A stretch of DNA of 64,000 nucleotides from an uncultured Opitutales bacterium (GTDB taxonomy: Bacteria; Verrucomicrobiota; Verrucomicrobiia; Opitutales; Intestinicryptomonadaceae), in contig URAK01000008.1 of NCBI GenBank assembly GCA_900545705.1, positions 72,096-136,095 on the forward strand, in the 5' to 3' direction. The position numbers were made by a program, and so were the translations under genes. Under the pieces are notes generated by a model. The model did no database searches, was not told the origin of the DNA, and saw nothing but the letters and a program-made list of their open reading frames with translations. Below, piece after piece: positions 32,280 through 53,910 of this stretch (its first letter is position 1; every line of letters starts with the position of its first letter).

Positions 32280-32362
32280 GCTCGGGTGGCGGAATGGTAG
32301 ACGCAGCGGACTTAAAATCCGCTGGCTTAACGGCCGTACGGGTTCGAGTCCCGTCCCGAGTA
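32280..32362 (+). tRNA. tRNA-Leu (anticodon UAA)
   Basis: Cloverleaf read directly: acceptor stem GCTCGGG/CCCGAGT, D-arm GGCGGAATGGTAGACGC, anticodon loop CTTAAAA, a long variable arm, and a GGTTCGAGTCC T-loop. Discriminator A; CCA is not encoded. Confidence 0.9.
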
Positions 32363-45811: not shown

Positions 45812-46762
45812 ATGAAAAGAAGAGAATTTATTGTAAAGACCGCATTGGGCACGGCGGCGGCCACGCTGCCTTTTTCAAGAGAACTTTTCGCCGAAGCTAA
45901 AAACGATCCCCAAAAACCCCTCGACATCGCCGCGATATTCGGCGGAACGGCCGCTGAAATGTTCGAGCGCGGAATCGCCGAAATGGGCGGCATGGGGCGT
46001 TTCGTGAAAAAGGGCGACTCTGTCGTCATCAAGCCAAACATCGGCTGGGACCAACCGCCGGAAGTCGGCGCCAACACGGACCCTGACCTCGTGGGGCTCG
46101 TCGTAAAAAAGTGCTTCGAGGCAGGCGCAAAAGAAGTATTGTGCTTCGACCACACTTGCGGCAACGACTGGCAAAATAGATATAAGATCAGCGGCATCGC
46201 GGAAAAAGTCGAATCAAACGGCGGAAAAATGGTCGCCGGCAACGACGAATTTATGTTTGTCGACCACGACATTCCACGCGGAAAATCGCTAAAGCACGCA
46301 AAAGTACACAAGCTTACCGTTAATCCAGATGTTTTTATAAACATTCCTGTCCTGAAACACCACGGCGGCGCGAAAATCACTTGCGCTCTCAAAAACTACA
46401 TGGGCTGCATTTTCGACAGGCAATGGTGGCACCGCAACAATATGCCGCAGTGCATCGCCGACTACTCCACATACCAAAAAACCACACTCACAATCGTTGA
46501 CGCCTACCGCGTTATGCTCGAGCACGGCCCACGCGGGAAATCGCCGAAGTTTGCGCCCGTCTCCAAGTACCAGATAATATCCACAGACATCGTCGCGGCG
46601 GACACGGCGGCAGTCCAGATTTTCGCCTCCATCGCGAAACGGCACGGAATGGGAAAGCCTTACGCACTCGACGAAATTAAGTACATCGCGCTCGCCGAAG
46701 AGCTTGGCGTCGGCACAACCGACCTCTCCAAGCTCAACATGAAGAGAATCTCCGTGGCGTAG
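45812..46762 (+). CDS. DUF362-family protein with a twin-arginine signal peptide
   Basis: 316 aa. TAT motif (MKRREFIVKTALGTAAATLPFS) and a DUF362-like core (VVIKPNIGW ... VLKHHGGAKITCALKNYMGC). Confidence 0.65.
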   Translation: MKRREFIVKTALGTAAATLPFSRELFAEAKNDPQKPLDIAAIFGGTAAEMFERGIAEMGGMGRFVKKGDSVVIKPNIGWDQPPEVGANTDPDLVGLVVKKCFEAGAKEVLCFDHTCGNDWQNRYKISGIAEKVESNGGKMVAGNDEFMFVDHDIPRGKSLKHAKVHKLTVNPDVFINIPVLKHHGGAKITCALKNYMGCIFDRQWWHRNNMPQCIADYSTYQKTTLTIVDAYRVMLEHGPRGKSPKFAPVSKYQIISTDIVAADTAAVQIFASIAKRHGMGKPYALDEIKYIALAEELGVGTTDLSKLNMKRISVA

Positions 46763-46840: not shown

Positions 46841-48739
46841 ATGAAAACATTTAAATTTCTGAAAGCGGCGAGAGTTGTCGTCGCGCTATTGTTGTTCTGC
46901 CTTATAAGCGCGCAATTCCTCGATGTGTACCACAGCCTCGGGAAGACGTATTGGGCGGCGAACCCGACGTCGCTTATGTATGCGCCGTCGCTTTTAAAGG
47001 CCCTGTCGGGGGCGGGGCTTGCAGCGGGCTGGGCGTTTATTGCATTCTCTCTCGCGGCGTTCGCGTTCGGGAGGGCATACTGCTCTTTCGCATGCCCGTT
47101 CGGGATTTTAATGGATATTTTGAGAAGAATCTCGGTGTATCCTGCAAAATCGCGCCTCCTAAAAAACACGGCGATTGGGAAGTTCTGCAAAAAGACTTTC
47201 GCCGCGCTTAAATACTCTCCGGCTGTCCCGTTTGCAAGGTGGATATTCCTCGCGCTGTCTGTGGCGGCCGTCGCATTCGGATACGGGGCGCTCTTCGGAT
47301 TTGTAGAGCCGTATTCTCTCTATGGGAAAATTATGGGGGGCATCGTCCACCCGGCGGCGAGCGTGGCAGTCGACGAAAGCGGAAGGCTGCTTGCAAACTT
47401 CGGCGTATATTCCATTCCTCCTGTCGGGGGAGATCCGACAGTCGCCCTCGCTTCTTTTGCGGTGGCAATTATAATTCTCGTAGCGATTTGGGCGGCGAGC
47501 GCACTATCGGGCAGAATTTATTGCAACACAATCTGCCCGGTGGGGGCGCTTCTCGGGCTATTTTCAAAAGCGGCCGTTTTTAAGCTCTCAATCGACAAGT
47601 CTTCATGCGTGTCCTGCGGGTTGTGCGAGCGCAACTGCAAAAGCAAATGCATAGACTCAAAAGGCAAGACGCTCGACTTCTCCAGATGCGTTCTATGCTT
47701 TAACTGCGCCGCAAACTGCCCAAAGAAATCCATATCTTTTGAATTTATCGCATCTCATAAAGAAAAACCGTCCGCCGAAAACTGCGTTGCCCGCGCGGAA
47801 GGAATTCCTCACGAAAAAAGACTCAGTCTCCAAGAAGGAAAGGCCAAAGAAAACAGACTCAATCGCCAAGAAAGCAAGACCGCTGAAAACAGCGTTGCGA
47901 ACTACGCGCCCACCGAAGGCAATCCCGGCAAAAGCAGTTTTTCGCCCACCGAAAACGAATCCGCAAAAAAAGACTTTAAAATGCCGAGGCGCTCATTCGC
48001 CGCCGGCCTGCTGCCGCTCGGCGCAATCCTCTGCTCCGCCGCAAAAAACGATTCCGCCGCGGGCAAAAATTCGGCGGCATCAAAAGACAATATCTCGCCA
48101 TATTCGCTCGACCCGTCGGATCCGCGAAGCAGAATGCCGTCTCCGCCCGGCTCGGTAAGCGTCGAGAATTTTCTTGAAAACTGCACGGGTTGCCAGATTT
48201 GCACTGCGGCATGCAAGGCGCATATCTTAAAGCCTTCCACAGGCCAATGGGGTCTCTCGGGATTTATGCGCCCGTATATGGACTATCTCGAAGGCTTTTG
48301 CCTCCACGCATGCAGAAGCTGCTCCGACGCCTGCCCAACTGGCGCGATTAAATTCATAACCGAGGAACAAAAGCGCTTTGAGAAAATTGGAACAGCAATT
48401 TTTAAGGAAGACCTGTGCGTCGTAAAAACCGACGGAACCGACTGTGCAGCATGCGCCGAGCACTGCCCTGTCCAGGCAATAGAAATGATTCCGTTCGGAG
48501 ATCCTAAAAATAGCCTCTACATTCCGCATGTGCACGAAGACGTCTGCATAGGCTGCGGCGCATGCGAATATATATGCCCCGTGCTGCCTAAAAAGGCAAT
48601 CGTCGTAAGGGGGCTTGCCGTGCACACGCGCGCAACGCCGTTCGATGAATCAATGCGCATATACAAACCGGAGCAGGAAGAAAAGAAGCCGACTAAAAAT
48701 GCGGTTCCTGTCGATACCCAAAACCCCTTCCCGTTTTAA
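46841..48739 (+). CDS. membrane-anchored polyferredoxin, NapH/MauN-like N-terminus plus multiple 4Fe-4S domains
   Basis: 632 aa. TM segments carry CSFACPFG and CNTICPVG motifs. At least six CxxCxxCxxxCP ferredoxin motifs. A low-complexity linker of about 140 aa, with imperfect duplications at DNA level (47760-47960), separates the ferredoxin domains. Confidence 0.8.
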   Translation: MKTFKFLKAARVVVALLLFCLISAQFLDVYHSLGKTYWAANPTSLMYAPSLLKALSGAGLAAGWAFIAFSLAAFAFGRAYCSFACPFGILMDILRRISVYPAKSRLLKNTAIGKFCKKTFAALKYSPAVPFARWIFLALSVAAVAFGYGALFGFVEPYSLYGKIMGGIVHPAASVAVDESGRLLANFGVYSIPPVGGDPTVALASFAVAIIILVAIWAASALSGRIYCNTICPVGALLGLFSKAAVFKLSIDKSSCVSCGLCERNCKSKCIDSKGKTLDFSRCVLCFNCAANCPKKSISFEFIASHKEKPSAENCVARAEGIPHEKRLSLQEGKAKENRLNRQESKTAENSVANYAPTEGNPGKSSFSPTENESAKKDFKMPRRSFAAGLLPLGAILCSAAKNDSAAGKNSAASKDNISPYSLDPSDPRSRMPSPPGSVSVENFLENCTGCQICTAACKAHILKPSTGQWGLSGFMRPYMDYLEGFCLHACRSCSDACPTGAIKFITEEQKRFEKIGTAIFKEDLCVVKTDGTDCAACAEHCPVQAIEMIPFGDPKNSLYIPHVHEDVCIGCGACEYICPVLPKKAIVVRGLAVHTRATPFDESMRIYKPEQEEKKPTKNAVPVDTQNPFPF

Positions 48740-49946: not shown

Positions 49947-50624
49947 CTATTCAAAAAACAGCGCCAGCGCACACAGCAGAATTACAGCCCCCGCGATTGC
50001 ATGCCCCCACCTTCGCAAAAAGAAAGTGTCGCTCTTTATAAAATTCAAGCCGAGCGAAACCGCCGATACGCAGGCGAGCATCGCCGCCAAAGTAGATGCC
50101 GAAAATGCCGCCACCACGGCGCAAACGCCCTCCCAGTTTCCATCAGAAGCCGGAACCATCACAAGGGGCGCGAGTATTTCGCACGGGCCAAGCGTAAAAA
50201 TCAAAAACAATGTCCAAAAGTTCGCCTTGTCCGACAACCCGCCGATTTTTTTTGCGCCCGAATCGGCTTCGCAGCAATGCATTCTCCCCCGCCCCGATAT
50301 CGAAACGCGCAATCCGAGAAAAAAGTACACTATTGCAAACGCAAGAAACGCCCATTTCATTATGTCCTCGCGCGCAGCGTCGAGAAGAGAAGCCTCCCCC
50401 ACACCCGCACCAAATGCGATTCCCAAGCCCCCAACCAAGGCTGATGAAAGCAAATGCCCCATGCCGCAGGCAGCCGCAAACGCAAGAATCTTCGGAAGGC
50501 CCCACCCGTGCGACTTTCCAATCGCGACAAACGGCAGGTAGTGCGCCGGATTCGCCGCCGTATGCACCGCACCAAACGCCGCCGCAGTCGCCGCCAAAGC
50601 CAATATTCCGCCGCTATCTTCCAT
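49947..50624 (-). CDS. polytopic membrane protein with CcdA/DsbD_2-like Cys motifs and a His/Cys cluster, candidate metal (Ni/Co) transporter
   Basis: 225 aa, about 6 TM helices. GPCEILAPL motif in a TM helix, an MHCCEADSG loop, and several His in helices. Stop/start overlap with larB suggests co-transcription. Confidence 0.4.
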   Translation of the reverse strand: MEDSGGILALAATAAAFGAVHTAANPAHYLPFVAIGKSHGWGLPKILAFAAACGMGHLLSSALVGGLGIAFGAGVGEASLLDAAREDIMKWAFLAFAIVYFFLGLRVSISGRGRMHCCEADSGAKKIGGLSDKANFWTLFLIFTLGPCEILAPLVMVPASDGNWEGVCAVVAAFSASTLAAMLACVSAVSLGLNFIKSDTFFLRRWGHAIAGAVILLCALALFFE

Positions 50625-50625
50625 A

Positions 50626-51372
50626 TCACAACCTGTTTGCCAAGTGCGCGCAATAACCCGCGCCGAAACCGTTGTCTATGTTCACAACACTTACTCCATT
50701 CGCGCAAGAGTTTATCATCGACAGCAACGCGGAAATTCCGCCAAAACTTGCCCCGTATCCGACACTCGTCGGAACGGCAAAAACGGGAACTGAAACAAGG
50801 CCCGCCAAGACGCTTGCAAGCGCGCCCTCCATGCCGGCAACTGCCACTATTGCGCTGCATTTGCGTATTTCTTCAAGCCTGTCGGCAAGCCTGTGTATCC
50901 CAGCCACACCGCAATCGTAAAACGCCTTTGCGGGGCTTCCCAGAAATTCGGCTGTCACGCGGGCCTCCTCCGCGACGGGCATGTCGCTCGTGCCGGCGCT
51001 AACTACCGCGATTTCCCCGCGCACGCGCGGTTTAGGAGAATCGGAATTTATCCATGCCGCACCCGCTATCCCGCAATATTTCGCGCGCGGAAATTCGCGC
51101 AAAAAAGCCTCTGCCGACTCTGGAGAAAGACGCGTCGCCAAAACTCCGCTACCCCGCTCGACCATCGCCCTGGCTATATCTATAATCTGCGGCGGAGTCT
51201 TTCCCGCGCCGTAAATGACCTCCCCCGCACCGCACCGGCGCTCCCTCGCCGCGTCTATCGACGTGTGCGACAGCTTTATTATCGACATTGAATCTATCAG
51301 CCTCTCGGCCTCCGCCTCGCCTATTTCTCCGTTCTTGTACGAGCGCAAAATTTCTTTCAAACCGTCTTTCAT
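50626..51372 (-). CDS. larB: nickel-pincer nucleotide biosynthesis carboxylase/hydrolase LarB (PurE-like)
   Basis: 248 aa. PurE-like core (EIAVVSAGTSDMPVAEEA, AIVAVAGMEGALASVLAG) with the roughly 70-aa N-terminal extension typical of LarB. Confidence 0.8.
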   Translation of the reverse strand: MKDGLKEILRSYKNGEIGEAEAERLIDSMSIIKLSHTSIDAARERRCGAGEVIYGAGKTPPQIIDIARAMVERGSGVLATRLSPESAEAFLREFPRAKYCGIAGAAWINSDSPKPRVRGEIAVVSAGTSDMPVAEEARVTAEFLGSPAKAFYDCGVAGIHRLADRLEEIRKCSAIVAVAGMEGALASVLAGLVSVPVFAVPTSVGYGASFGGISALLSMINSCANGVSVVNIDNGFGAGYCAHLANRL

Positions 51373-52166
51373 ACGTTCATGCTTCCGCTTTCATAGCCTC
51401 TCAAATCTACACACGCGCGCGCGAATCCCGCGCCCTCGACAAACTCCGCAATCTTCGGCGCGAGGAAAGCCGCATTCGCATAAAACCTGCCCAAGTCCGC
51501 CGCGCCGAGCTCCACGCGCCCGACCTTGCCGTGAACCCTCACCCTTACCTGCGAGAACCCAAGCGAACGCACGCGCCTTTCAGCCTCGTCCACCCTTTTT
51601 AAATCCGTCTCTCCTATCTCTACACCCGTCTCGAAGCGCGTCATTAGACACGCCCCGGACGGCGCGAACTCGACGGGCATTCCCGCATTTTTTGCGTATT
51701 CCCTCACATCCGCCTTCGTCCACCCTGATTCCAACAGGGGGCTGCGAATTTTCAATTCCTTCAACGCCCTCATTCCGGGGCGGTAGTCCGACAAATCGTC
51801 TGTATTTGTGCCGTCGCACAAGACTCCGAGAGATTCTTCGGCGCATATTTTTAGAAATTCTGAAAACATTGCCCTCTTGCACAAATAGCATCTTTCGGGC
51901 GGGTTATTCCTTATCTCTTCTGGAATCCTGCCGTTTCTGACAACTTTGCGGCGCACTCCCAAATAGCGGCAGATTTTTTCGGAATTGTCCGTCTCTGAGG
52001 CGGGCATTTGCGGGGTATCGGCAGTAATGGCGGCGCAATTTTCGGCCCCTAAAACGGAGGCGCAAAAATGCAGCAACACCGCGCTGTCAAGCCCGCCTGA
52101 AAGGGCTACGGCAGCCCTGCCCAACCCGCGCAGATTCTCACTCAGCGCCTTTTCCTTCAAATTCAT
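51369..52166 (-). CDS. larE: nickel-pincer nucleotide biosynthesis sulfur transferase LarE (PP-loop ATP pyrophosphatase)
   Basis: 265 aa. PP-loop SGGLDSAV, a CYLCKR pair, and a conserved Cys in APSGACLMTRF. Overlaps larB by 4 nt and larC by 29 nt. Confidence 0.8.
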   Translation of the reverse strand: MNLKEKALSENLRGLGRAAVALSGGLDSAVLLHFCASVLGAENCAAITADTPQMPASETDNSEKICRYLGVRRKVVRNGRIPEEIRNNPPERCYLCKRAMFSEFLKICAEESLGVLCDGTNTDDLSDYRPGMRALKELKIRSPLLESGWTKADVREYAKNAGMPVEFAPSGACLMTRFETGVEIGETDLKRVDEAERRVRSLGFSQVRVRVHGKVGRVELGAADLGRFYANAAFLAPKIAEFVEGAGFARACVDLRGYESGSMNV

Positions 52167-53712
52167 CTAATATCTTTCTCGACAATTTTCCAAAAGGCAT
52201 TCGCGTTTTCGCCGAAATTTTTGCAATATCGTCGGCCTCCGCCTTCGACTTTCTTATTCCGCCGAAGCGCGCGGTCTTAACGCGCACTTTGCCGAACGAC
52301 GACTCAAACACAGTTTCCTCGCGCGGAAGGCTGTCCCGACGTACTCGCATTCGCCTGACTCCTAGCGTTCCAGACCTCTCAAAAAAAGCCGCCGCAACCC
52401 TGTCTTCGGCCCCAGTCGGGCACAATGCGCACACTTTTACGCCCACCCTGCACTTCTTCATTGCAATTGGCTCTTGCCATGCGTCCACGGCGCCTTCGCC
52501 AAAGAGCGACTGCGCAAATTCGGCAAGCTCCTCGGCGCTCATATCGTCGATATTCGCCTCCACAAGCGCCATCTCTTCGGTGAGCGTCAGGGGCTCTTGG
52601 CTCGTTTCGTAAACCATAACCCTAAGCACATTCGCAATTCCGGGAACGTCGCGGCCGCCTATCCCGACGCCGACAGACGAAATTTTACCCGAGAGCTTCG
52701 GCTCGTACGCATCGCACATTGAAGCTATAATCGCAGCGCCTGTCGGAGTTGTCGCCTCATGCGCGGCGCCCCCGACCTTTGACGGGAAAGACTTTGCAAG
52801 CTCCGCCGTCGCGGGGGCTGGAACCGGCATCACCCCGTGCGCGCATCTCACCGTGCCCGAACCAAGCTCAACCGCCGAAGACACTATTCTGTCAACCCCC
52901 AGCAGCTCAAAGCATACGGCTGCCCCTACTATATCGACTATCGAGTCAACCGCGCCGACCTCGTGGAAATGAACATTTTCGATTTCAACCCCGTGCACTT
53001 TGGCCTCCGCCTCGGCGAGCGCCCTAAAAATTTTCATGGAGTCGCGCTTGACCCTTTCGGACAATCCAGAATTTTCTATTATTTTGGCAATTTCCCCGAA
53101 TGTTCTATGTGAATGGCGGTGCGCTACCGCCCCGCCGTGCGCCGTTTCATCGAGGTTGTTGTGCGCGCGAGCTTCGGCTGAAGTTTTAATTTTCCCGCTT
53201 TCTTTTATAGAGTGCCCATTATTGGAGGTGCAATATGCTAAATTTTCCGCAGAATGTTCGTGAGTATTGTGGGCATGTTCGTGGGCATGGCGAGAATGTT
53301 CGCAAATATTGTGGGAGTGCGCGTGGGCGTCGTTGAAATGTACATGGGTATCGTGGGAATGTTCGTGCTGAAAGTGCCCGTTAGTATCGTGGAAATGCTC
53401 GTGGGCGTGGCGAGAATGTTCGTGGGTATCGTGGGAATGGTTGTGGTCGTAGTGCGAATGTTCACAGCCTTCCGAATGCGTGTGGCCAAAGTCTTCCGCG
53501 CCTTCGCATTCGCAGTTGTCGAGCGCGACATGTACGCGGGTTCCAAATATGCCAAGCCTGCTCTCGCGCGATATCTCAAGCCTCCAGCCTCCGACCCCCA
53601 ATGTTTGCAGCCGCCTTTCAAGTTCTGCCGCATCGGCCCCGGCGTCCACAAGCGCGCCGAGATTCATATCCCCGCTTATGCCCGCAAAACAGTCGTAATA
53701 TAAAGTCTTCAT
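52138..53712 (-). CDS. larC: nickel insertion protein LarC (DUF111) with an expanded His-rich insert
   Basis: Start taken at the internal MKTLYYDCFAGISGDMNLGALVDAG (the LarC N-terminal motif); the track ORF extends to 53790. About 100 aa of H-x-H repeats (HTHSEGCEHSHYDHNHSHDTHEHSRHAHEHFHD...HAHEHAHNTHEHS). C-terminal LarC2-like CTP-binding domain. Confidence 0.8.
   Translation of the reverse strand: MKTLYYDCFAGISGDMNLGALVDAGADAAELERRLQTLGVGGWRLEISRESRLGIFGTRVHVALDNCECEGAEDFGHTHSEGCEHSHYDHNHSHDTHEHSRHAHEHFHDTNGHFQHEHSHDTHVHFNDAHAHSHNICEHSRHAHEHAHNTHEHSAENLAYCTSNNGHSIKESGKIKTSAEARAHNNLDETAHGGAVAHRHSHRTFGEIAKIIENSGLSERVKRDSMKIFRALAEAEAKVHGVEIENVHFHEVGAVDSIVDIVGAAVCFELLGVDRIVSSAVELGSGTVRCAHGVMPVPAPATAELAKSFPSKVGGAAHEATTPTGAAIIASMCDAYEPKLSGKISSVGVGIGGRDVPGIANVLRVMVYETSQEPLTLTEEMALVEANIDDMSAEELAEFAQSLFGEGAVDAWQEPIAMKKCRVGVKVCALCPTGAEDRVAAAFFERSGTLGVRRMRVRRDSLPREETVFESSFGKVRVKTARFGGIRKSKAEADDIAKISAKTRMPFGKLSRKILDEFEGKGAE
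53190..53510. repeat. imperfect tandem DNA repeats encoding the LarC His-rich region
   Basis: Recurring gtgggcatgttcgtg / gtgggtatcgtgggaatgttcgtg-type units, read directly from the sequence. Confidence 0.7.
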
Positions 53713-53910
53713 ATATTTTTCGCGCCATTTTAATTCCAAAAAATAGCGCGTCAAGCCGTTTAGGCGCGCAAAAAATGGCAAAAAAAACACCTTTTTAACT
53801 TTCTCAGAAATTTGACTTATCGTTCATAAAACGAAAACAATTGAACTGTTAAAAATAAAAATGGCTTTTTACTTATTGATTTTTAAGCAAACAAATAATA
53901 ATTCCCAAGT

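Follow-up and report, generated by a model that had tools for sequence, protein, structure and literature searches.

A long, polymorphic, histidine-rich loop encoded by old DNA repeats in a predicted LarC nickel insertase

The window analysed here, the whole 64,000-nucleotide stretch of contig URAK01000008.1 from an uncultured Opitutales bacterium, encodes a predicted LarC, the enzyme that inserts nickel into the nickel-pincer cofactor, with a greatly enlarged internal insert. The core of this insert is a histidine-rich H-x-H tract encoded by imperfect, in-frame DNA repeats. Among closely related strains, these repeats undergo deletion in frame, gain short stretches by slippage and recombine between alleles. 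The tract is an extreme, polymorphic example of a feature already recognised in the LarC family. New here are the quantified length of the tract, its repeat anatomy, seven within-species alleles with mapped breakpoints, and the truncation of LarC by gene callers.

Identification of LarC and its insert

LarC carries out the CTP-dependent insertion of nickel by which the nickel-pincer nucleotide cofactor is completed. The gene in the window (Table 1) has a product that scores far above the cut-offs of the Pfam family PF01969 (Ni_insertion; E=3e-129, 431.7 bits, cut-off 22.1) and of the NCBIfam models TIGR00299 (LarC1; 214.8 bits, cut-off 90) and NF052512 (LarC2; 116.6 bits, cut-off 50). Its sequence also matches both domains of the full-length LarC structure of Moorella thermoacetica (12bi, 7e-70) and the LarC2-domain structure of Lactiplantibacillus plantarum LarC (6bwo, 1e-12). 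Superposition of the modelled C-terminal domain on 6bwo and 6bwq gives template modelling (TM) scores of 0.87-0.90; the PDB set searched with Foldseek is older than the full-length LarC entries, and the match there comprises the LarC2 domain only. The larC, larE and larB genes have one orientation and overlapping ends, and their order is kept in all related loci. Judged by these matches, the product is a genuine LarC encoded in a larC-larE-larB operon, and the gene name given in a preliminary description of this DNA is borne out.

The N-terminus that follows the ATG start, MKTLYYDC, is kept across the LarC family, and M1 and K2 are nearly invariant among 146 homologs. The open reading frame (ORF) continues upstream of this ATG as far as a GTG at 53790, an unlikely start codon. 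Here larC is a single ORF without a larC1/larC2 frameshift junction. The nearest named relatives among the matches listed are proteins of Verrucomicrobia and Opitutales metagenome-assembled genomes (MAGs), at 42-55% identity, and all contigs with the exact LarE protein of the window are human-gut metagenomes or MAGs.

The 375 positions of the PF01969 profile are stretched across residues 5-509 of this protein. Residues 1-64 and 200-482 align to residues 18-81 and 85-366 of the 12bi chain, and the insert lies between them, as a loop joining the strand at 55-64 to the helix at 205-213. In an AlphaFold2 model built from a homolog alignment, residues ~66-199 have a predicted local distance difference test (pLDDT) score below 50 and no secondary structure, both LarC domains score above 90, and residues 1-64 score above 95. 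The insert is thus predicted, from the model, to be a disordered loop that leaves the fold at the presumed nickel site.

That site has been described in a 2026 cryo-EM and mutagenesis study of Moorella LarC, in which a surface histidine patch (H53, H70, H72, H108, H116, H118, H160 and H226) was proposed to bind nickel, R71 was assigned to an acidic pocket, and R71A and the histidine-patch mutants lost activity (PMC13510736). The motif that closes the insert, H203-R204, is nearly invariant in our alignment A2 (as H202 and R203, the numbering being offset by one), and H240, H250 and H292 are invariant among the 146 homologs. Moorella residues D15, R71, E104, H108, H116, H118, E119, D124, D128, H160 and E187, the pocket and patch residues that mutagenesis has shown to be required, all have counterparts in the window LarC (D15, R204, E236, H240, H248, H250, E251, D256, D260, H292 and E319, respectively), and most of these are invariant in the same homologs.

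All 41 histidines of the protein sit in the LarC1 domain, 35 of them in the 140-residue linker as a whole (residues 64-203). The region at 53190-53510 (residues 68-174), which had been described as holding about 40 histidines in about 100 residues, has 30 in 107. Within the tract, HxH pairs are enriched (17 observed against 9.9 expected, P=0.0004) and adjacent histidines are absent (0 observed against 10 expected). Between the histidines lie chiefly E, S, A, T, D and N; the Glu and Asp of the preliminary description are present, whereas Cys occurs only twice. A histidine-poor, non-repetitive spacer follows the tract. It is found only in relatives that are 87-91% identical and is absent in the next relatives, at 52-70% identity.

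Repeat structure of the tract

Three repeat orders could be recognised in the DNA that encodes the tract. Tandem Repeats Finder (TRF) reported periods of 21 and 42 nt, the 42-nt unit being present in 5.2 copies with 68% match, and a separate repeat search found nine copies spaced 21 nt apart with 61-84% identity. The third order is a pair of 86-nt segments spaced 120 nt apart, which contains a 27-nt direct repeat (Table 1). The tract is therefore encoded by imperfect tandem repeats, as had been suggested for the insert, but the unit is 21 nt long, with higher orders of 42 and 120 nt, and not about 24 nt.

Because histidine codons alone would give some periodicity, autocorrelation at all lags was compared with that of codon-shuffled versions of the tract. 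The observed values exceed the shuffled ones at lags of 21, 42 and 120 nt (z=5.7, 6.3 and 6.5, respectively; P<=0.001 corrected over lags). Where repeat copies have an amino acid in common, their synonymous codons, too, agree more often than expected at a lag of 14 residues (18 of 25, P=0.006) and at a lag of 40 residues (13 of 17, P=0.019), and we therefore conclude that the 42- and 120-nt orders arose by duplication of DNA and not by convergence of peptide composition. Codon sharing at the 7-residue lag is not significant (P=0.38), and the age of the 21-nt order obscures whether it, too, came from DNA duplication.

Table 1. Positions in the window of larC, its insert and associated features (aa, residues of the 524-aa LarC)
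Feature	Position	Strand	Remarks
larC coding sequence	52138..53712	-	524 aa + stop; ATG start, N-terminus MKTLYYDC
larE (sulfur transferase)	51369..52166	-	TIGR00268 7e-77, above cut-off; overlaps larC end
larB (NaAD carboxylase/hydrolase)	50626..51372	-	NF033503 8e-84, above cut-off
Insert relative to Moorella LarC	53116..53520	-	aa 65-199, ~135 aa, 33 His; Moorella has 3 residues
H-x-H repeat tract	53245..53487	-	aa 76-156; 81 aa, of which 29 (36%) His; 21-nt units encoding degenerate HxHxHxx heptads
Higher-order repeat, copy 1	53379..53464	-	aa 83-112; 86-nt pair, spacing 120 nt, 76% identity
Higher-order repeat, copy 2	53259..53344	-	aa 123-152; partner of 53379..53464
27-nt direct repeat, copy 1, GAACATTCTCGCCACGCCCACGAGCAT	53395..53421	-	EHSRHAHEH, aa 98-106; 120-nt deletion breakpoint
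27-nt direct repeat, copy 2, GAACATTCTCGCCATGCCCACGAACAT	53275..53301	-	aa 138-146; other 120-nt deletion breakpoint
His-poor, non-repetitive spacer, AENLAYCTSNNGHSIKESGKIK...	53116..53244	-	aa 157-199; particular to this species group
H203-R204, conserved motif closing the insert	53101..53106	-	equivalent to Moorella H70-R71 (12bi alignment)
His-patch residues H240, H248, H250, H292	52837..52995	-	equivalent to Moorella H108, H116, H118, H160
Antisense V/G/M-rich ORF, 149 aa	53254..53703	+	mirror of His codons; not a gene

Length alleles among strains

The closest database proteins, at 87-91% overall identity, differ from the window LarC almost solely in the length of the tract. Outside the linker, the larC DNA of the closest relatives is 98.5-99.3% identical to that of the window, and that of a second lineage 95.8% identical. 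On backgrounds that are ~99% identical, we found at least seven in-frame tract lengths (24, 31, 38, 52, 64, 78 and 82 residues). The suggestion that the tract could vary in length between strains thus holds, even where LarE is unchanged: contigs with the window's exact LarE protein carry tracts of 24, 38, 64, 78 and 82 residues, and the 31- and 52-residue alleles come from members of the LarC cluster. The commonest called allele has 38 residues.

Compared codon by codon, several of these alleles have breakpoints within repeat copies. In the 38-residue allele (L001, L005 and others), the 120 nt between the copies of the 27-nt repeat (GAACATTCTCGCCAYGCCCACGARCAT) are gone and a copy-1/copy-2 hybrid is kept. 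The 31-residue allele lacks 141 nt between two copies of CACGAACAT, and the 24-residue allele lacks 165 nt between two CAC-RAT-ACY motifs, so that the repeats flanking the 120-, 141- and 165-nt deletions are 27, 9 and ~8 nt long, respectively. Smaller changes are the 36 nt missing from the 52-residue allele and the 12 nt gained in the 82-residue allele, which encode an extra HEHA. The tracts of L096 and P0006 are chimeras, in which the 5' half of one lineage is joined to the 3' half of the other, and L001 has a lineage-A larC (98.5% identical to the window) and yet is 4.2% divergent over larC, larE and larB. We read these as signs of recombination between two lineages that are ~5.5% apart.

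The eight or so indel events observed in the tract all preserve the reading frame, and ~70 sequences (~20 loci and ~50 cluster members) yielded no tract that is out of frame. This record, and a unit that is imperfect and, at 21 nt, a multiple of three, make it very improbable that the tract is a phase-variable contingency locus at which repeat slippage switches LarC on and off by frameshift. The single contig with a frameshift that splits LarC (L090) would fit such a locus, but there the frame is broken ahead of the repeats, perhaps through faulty assembly.

Repeats can be joined wrongly when metagenomes are assembled from short reads, and the tract could in principle be an artefact of assembly or sequencing. 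However, identity between the repeat copies is only 61-84%, and assembly k-mers are longer than the longest near-exact repeat, which measures 27 nt. In L099, an independent contig from the human gut, larC is identical to that of the window over all 1572 nt, and four further, independent samples carry the window-length allele with 14-27 point differences. The window allele is therefore no assembly artefact, a reading that we regard as having next to no chance of being correct; the short alleles, too, each recur in several samples. The repeats are in this way reproduced in independent assemblies.

Age, direction of change and selection

Divergence between strains was measured over 2730 nt, comprising the larC core, larE and larB. 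The copies spaced 120 nt apart differ by 24% and the strains by only 0.4-1.5%, and the long allele is therefore no recent duplication of the short one. The 78-residue allele is found across lineage A, up to 1.5% divergence, with 2-3 substitutions, and lineage B (5.5% away) keeps the middle section of the tract (FHDTN.H..HEHSH). The long form is therefore ancestral here. The nearest neighbours of the window (0.4-0.7% away) have the 38-residue allele, and the short alleles are most simply read, from the alignments, as deletions between repeat copies. The only clearly recent gain that we observed is one of 12 nt, in L098 relative to L097 (0.1% apart). The recent expansion proposed in the preliminary description does not agree with this history.

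Between the window and lineage B, the ratio of nonsynonymous to synonymous substitution rates (dN/dS) rises from 0.04 in the core to 0.27 in the tract and to ~1 in the spacer, the last from small counts; dN itself is 0.156 in the tract and 0.007 in the core. Histidine is kept at 21 of 25 aligned positions and other residues at 34 of 53. Given the dN/dS of 0.27, the retention of histidine, the in-frame record, the avoidance of adjacent histidines and the convergent histidine-rich tracts of other LarCs (see below), we consider the composition of the tract to be maintained, and its length and exact sequence to be weakly constrained.

The insert in the LarC family

We surveyed the family in 147 LarC representatives clustered at 50% identity, the best-scoring of ~12,600 matches, and in 55 GTDB loci. 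Among the representatives, the linker, delimited by the same anchors, has a median length of 31 residues (interquartile range 11-51, 95th percentile 91, maximum 156) and a median of nine histidines (95th percentile ~30, maximum 41). The window linker is the second longest of the 147, and only five representatives reach 100 residues or more. The region is thus greatly expanded relative to the family, and its length falls, according to this survey, in the top 1-2%. At the other end of the range, the linker of Prolixibacteraceae LarCs has 10 residues and one histidine.

Long tracts are also present elsewhere in the family. Among named GTDB genomes, they include those of Bacillus sp. FJAT-49711 (L038; 101 residues, 53 His), Mobilitalea sibirica DSM 26468 (L007; 106 residues, 38 His; a 72-nt unit in 2.1 copies with 92% identity), Anaerocolumna sp. 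MB42-C2 (121 residues), a Marvinbryantia MAG (97 residues, 36 His) and the Verrucomicrobia MAG CIM:MAG 1451 (143 residues). In a Treponema MAG (L075), larC has an 18-nt unit in 6.7 copies with 91% match. Of the 21 linkers with at least 40 residues, 17 contain tandem repeats that TRF places in frame, the periods ranging from 6 to 72 nt. Growth of a histidine-rich loop by DNA repeats thus recurs at this site, and unrelated LarCs have grown their tracts independently, always rich in histidine and never of another composition. A length such as that in the window is not typical of the family, but because long repeat-derived tracts recur in other LarCs, it is extreme and not singular.

The histidine tracts of the Bacillus, Mobilitalea and Treponema proteins are even denser or more recently duplicated than that of the window. 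The first two are from cultured strains, which makes them convenient experimental subjects.

Annotation of larC

The strand opposite the histidine tract reads as a long open frame (Table 1), and gene callers therefore cut LarC down to 299 residues starting at M226. The same antisense ORF is called at L086 1835-2263, L092 1064-1492 and L099 1064-1513. Truncated products of 299 residues account for many of the database entries in this LarC cluster, and the 524-residue LarC of the window is missing from the protein collection, although an identical coding sequence is present in L099. Surveys of protein databases consequently under-count the long-tract variants of LarC.

That callers repeatedly report a 299-residue LarC together with an antisense ORF of 135-149 residues could be taken to mean that the antisense ORF is the real gene and that LarC starts at M226. 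We consider this scarcely credible. The larC reading frame runs without interruption from the conserved N-terminal domain across the tract to the remainder of LarC1, LarC profiles and structures both match residues 1-64, which are modelled with high pLDDT, and the antisense ORF is merely the GTG/ATG-rich complement of CAC and CAT codons.

We also considered whether the 299-residue LarCs could be frameshifted or phase-off alleles. This was rejected, as the larC ORF is intact in L086-L089 and the short proteins are gene-calling artefacts. In L090 (1368-2896; ERZ28656714 scaffold_2178), larC has a frameshift just upstream of the tract, after GAENFGH, with called products of 98 and 299 residues; either the assembly is wrong here or larC may be a true pseudogene in this contig.

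Proposed role of the tract

In the account that we favour, the LarC1 surface loop directly before H203-R204 has grown to ~135 residues of predicted disorder, and its 81-residue H-x-H tract is an old product of the duplication, in frame, of a 21-nt unit into higher orders of 42 and 120 nt. The tract may serve as a flexible arm that captures Ni(II) at several sites, or as a local reservoir, and may pass nickel to the adjacent, fixed histidine patch; this would extend to a longer tract what is presumed of the shorter histidine region in L. plantarum LarC. Nickel storage or scavenging, the role suggested in the preliminary description, is plausible because the insert ends at the equivalents of Moorella H70-R71, at the edge of the histidine patch and the acidic pocket, and nickel handling of the HypB/UreE type is, by analogy, the likely mode of action. 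The tract would be accessory to catalysis and not a part of it, since LarCs exist without one (3 residues in the active Moorella enzyme, 10 in Prolixibacteraceae LarCs), and its length would then be only weakly constrained. We regard the anatomy and evolution proposed here with high confidence and the account as a whole as probable; for the function as a nickel reservoir, considered separately, the balance tips only slightly in favour.

The alternative that deserves most weight is near-neutral, low-complexity growth, in which slippage and unequal recombination swelled a short histidine patch, its lengths drift, and the tract has no physiological nickel role. Such growth would explain tracts of 24-82 residues among strains with identical LarE, the commonest called allele being a short one, the high dN of the tract relative to the core, the spacer dN/dS of ~1, and the many LarCs without a tract, the active Moorella enzyme included. 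It accounts less well for the in-frame character of every tract indel, for a tract dN/dS of 0.27 and not 1, for the complete avoidance of HH beside enriched HxH, for expansions at this site that are always histidine-rich in distant phyla, and for the persistence of the 78-residue allele over ~1.5% divergence. On this evidence we consider near-neutral growth rather unlikely.

Several points nevertheless weigh against the nickel-reservoir account. The maps of Moorella LarC obtained by cryo-EM show no nickel density (PMC13510736). The preference for retaining histidine over other residues is modest and comes from small counts. The threefold spread of lengths between nearly identical strains, a dN 20 times that of the core, and the spacer dN/dS of ~1 are fitted equally well by a weakly selected low-complexity loop. 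Both family surveys, moreover, are samples of the family.

A more ambitious version of the nickel-reservoir account, which we think improbable, is that the tract is a 'nickel capacity knob' that can be adjusted rapidly, in which repeat-mediated gain and loss of HxH units tunes nickel capture by LarC. If this were true, alleles would be sorted by the nickel availability of each human gut, tract length would follow the host or its diet, and LarC with a long tract would be an important store of nickel in the cell. The role of the LarC histidine-rich region has so far only been presumed, and the enzyme of the 2026 structure paper, in which no nickel was seen, is one without a tract (PMC13510736). 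Natural short alleles exist alongside the tract-less active homolog, and the natural series from 24 to 82 residues, in proteins that are otherwise ~99% identical, suits tests of tract length against nickel stoichiometry or performance at low nickel.

Neighbouring genes and other features of the window

Two genes located 2-5 kb from larB encode a DUF362 protein (45812-46762, + strand; PF04015, 9e-47) and a 632-residue membrane polyferredoxin (46841-48739, + strand), and the pair is kept beside the lar genes in related contigs. DUF362 belongs to Pfam clan CL0471 together with the LarA domain DUF2088 (PMC11770544). Neither the ten ORFs of at least 384 residues upstream of 43300 nor the scanned neighbours include a canonical LarA. 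The DUF362/polyferredoxin pair may be a candidate for a system that uses the nickel-pincer cofactor.

Directly after larB, a gene at 49947-50624 (- strand) encodes a 225-residue multi-pass membrane protein that is present in most related loci. Its match to PF13386 (DsbD_2/UreH-like) is below threshold (E=5e-4, 20.4 bits, cut-off 24.9), and it could be a nickel permease of the lar operon. Gene content at this place varies between contigs. In L094 (4142-4710), the 225-residue gene and a 313-residue gene are missing downstream of larB and the polyferredoxin gene is almost directly next, L003 (5248-7482) has a PriA-like gene after larB, and L096 (4142-4567) is without the 225-residue gene. Both contigs that carry the shortest tract (24 residues) belong to the group in which the content downstream of larB is altered.

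A search of the window against Rfam gave a tRNA (32280-32362, + strand) as the sole match, with no riboswitch, the NiCo class included, near the lar operon. There are no other histidine-rich ORFs in the window.

Comparison with known systems

A histidine-rich region in LarC1 is a textbook feature of the family and varies between species. LarC1 has 21 histidines in L. plantarum and 8 in Moorella (PMC13510736). The L. plantarum protein, the reference LarC, resembles that of the window in its two domains, in the position of its histidine-rich segment and in its association with larB and larE (PMC13510736), whereas the LarC1 of the window has 41 histidines, 33 of them in the 135-residue insert, the 21-, 42- and 120-nt repeats and the length polymorphism of its tract set it apart, and the gene is a single ORF. 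Moorella LarC (12bi-12bl) shares the core (7e-70), and its histidine patch and acidic-pocket residues are kept; it is, however, a natural tract-less form, still active with 3 residues in place of 135. The LarCs of Bacillus, Mobilitalea, Anaerocolumna and CIM:MAG 1451 have, like that of the window, repeat-derived histidine-rich expansions at the same site, but these use other repeat units and are of independent origin.

Histidine tracts are also known from other nickel accessory proteins, among them the N-terminus of HypB (Bradyrhizobium), the C-terminal tail of UreE (Klebsiella), CooJ, Hpn/Hpn-2 and SlyD. The LarC tract is similar to these in being of low complexity, flexible (as predicted here), rich in histidine, located on a nickel-handling protein, presumably accessory and variable between species. 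Those proteins belong to unrelated families and have terminal tails, whereas the LarC tract is an internal loop beside an active site that forms a Ni-C bond.

At the level of DNA, the tract resembles the variable number tandem repeats (VNTRs) of bacterial coding minisatellites, with imperfect in-frame repeats and length alleles that arise through recombination or slippage between copies. It differs from the VNTRs of surface antigens in that it is cytoplasmic and metal-related, and its repeats are old and degenerate. Turnover is therefore moderate, and alleles are common to strains across 1-1.5% divergence.

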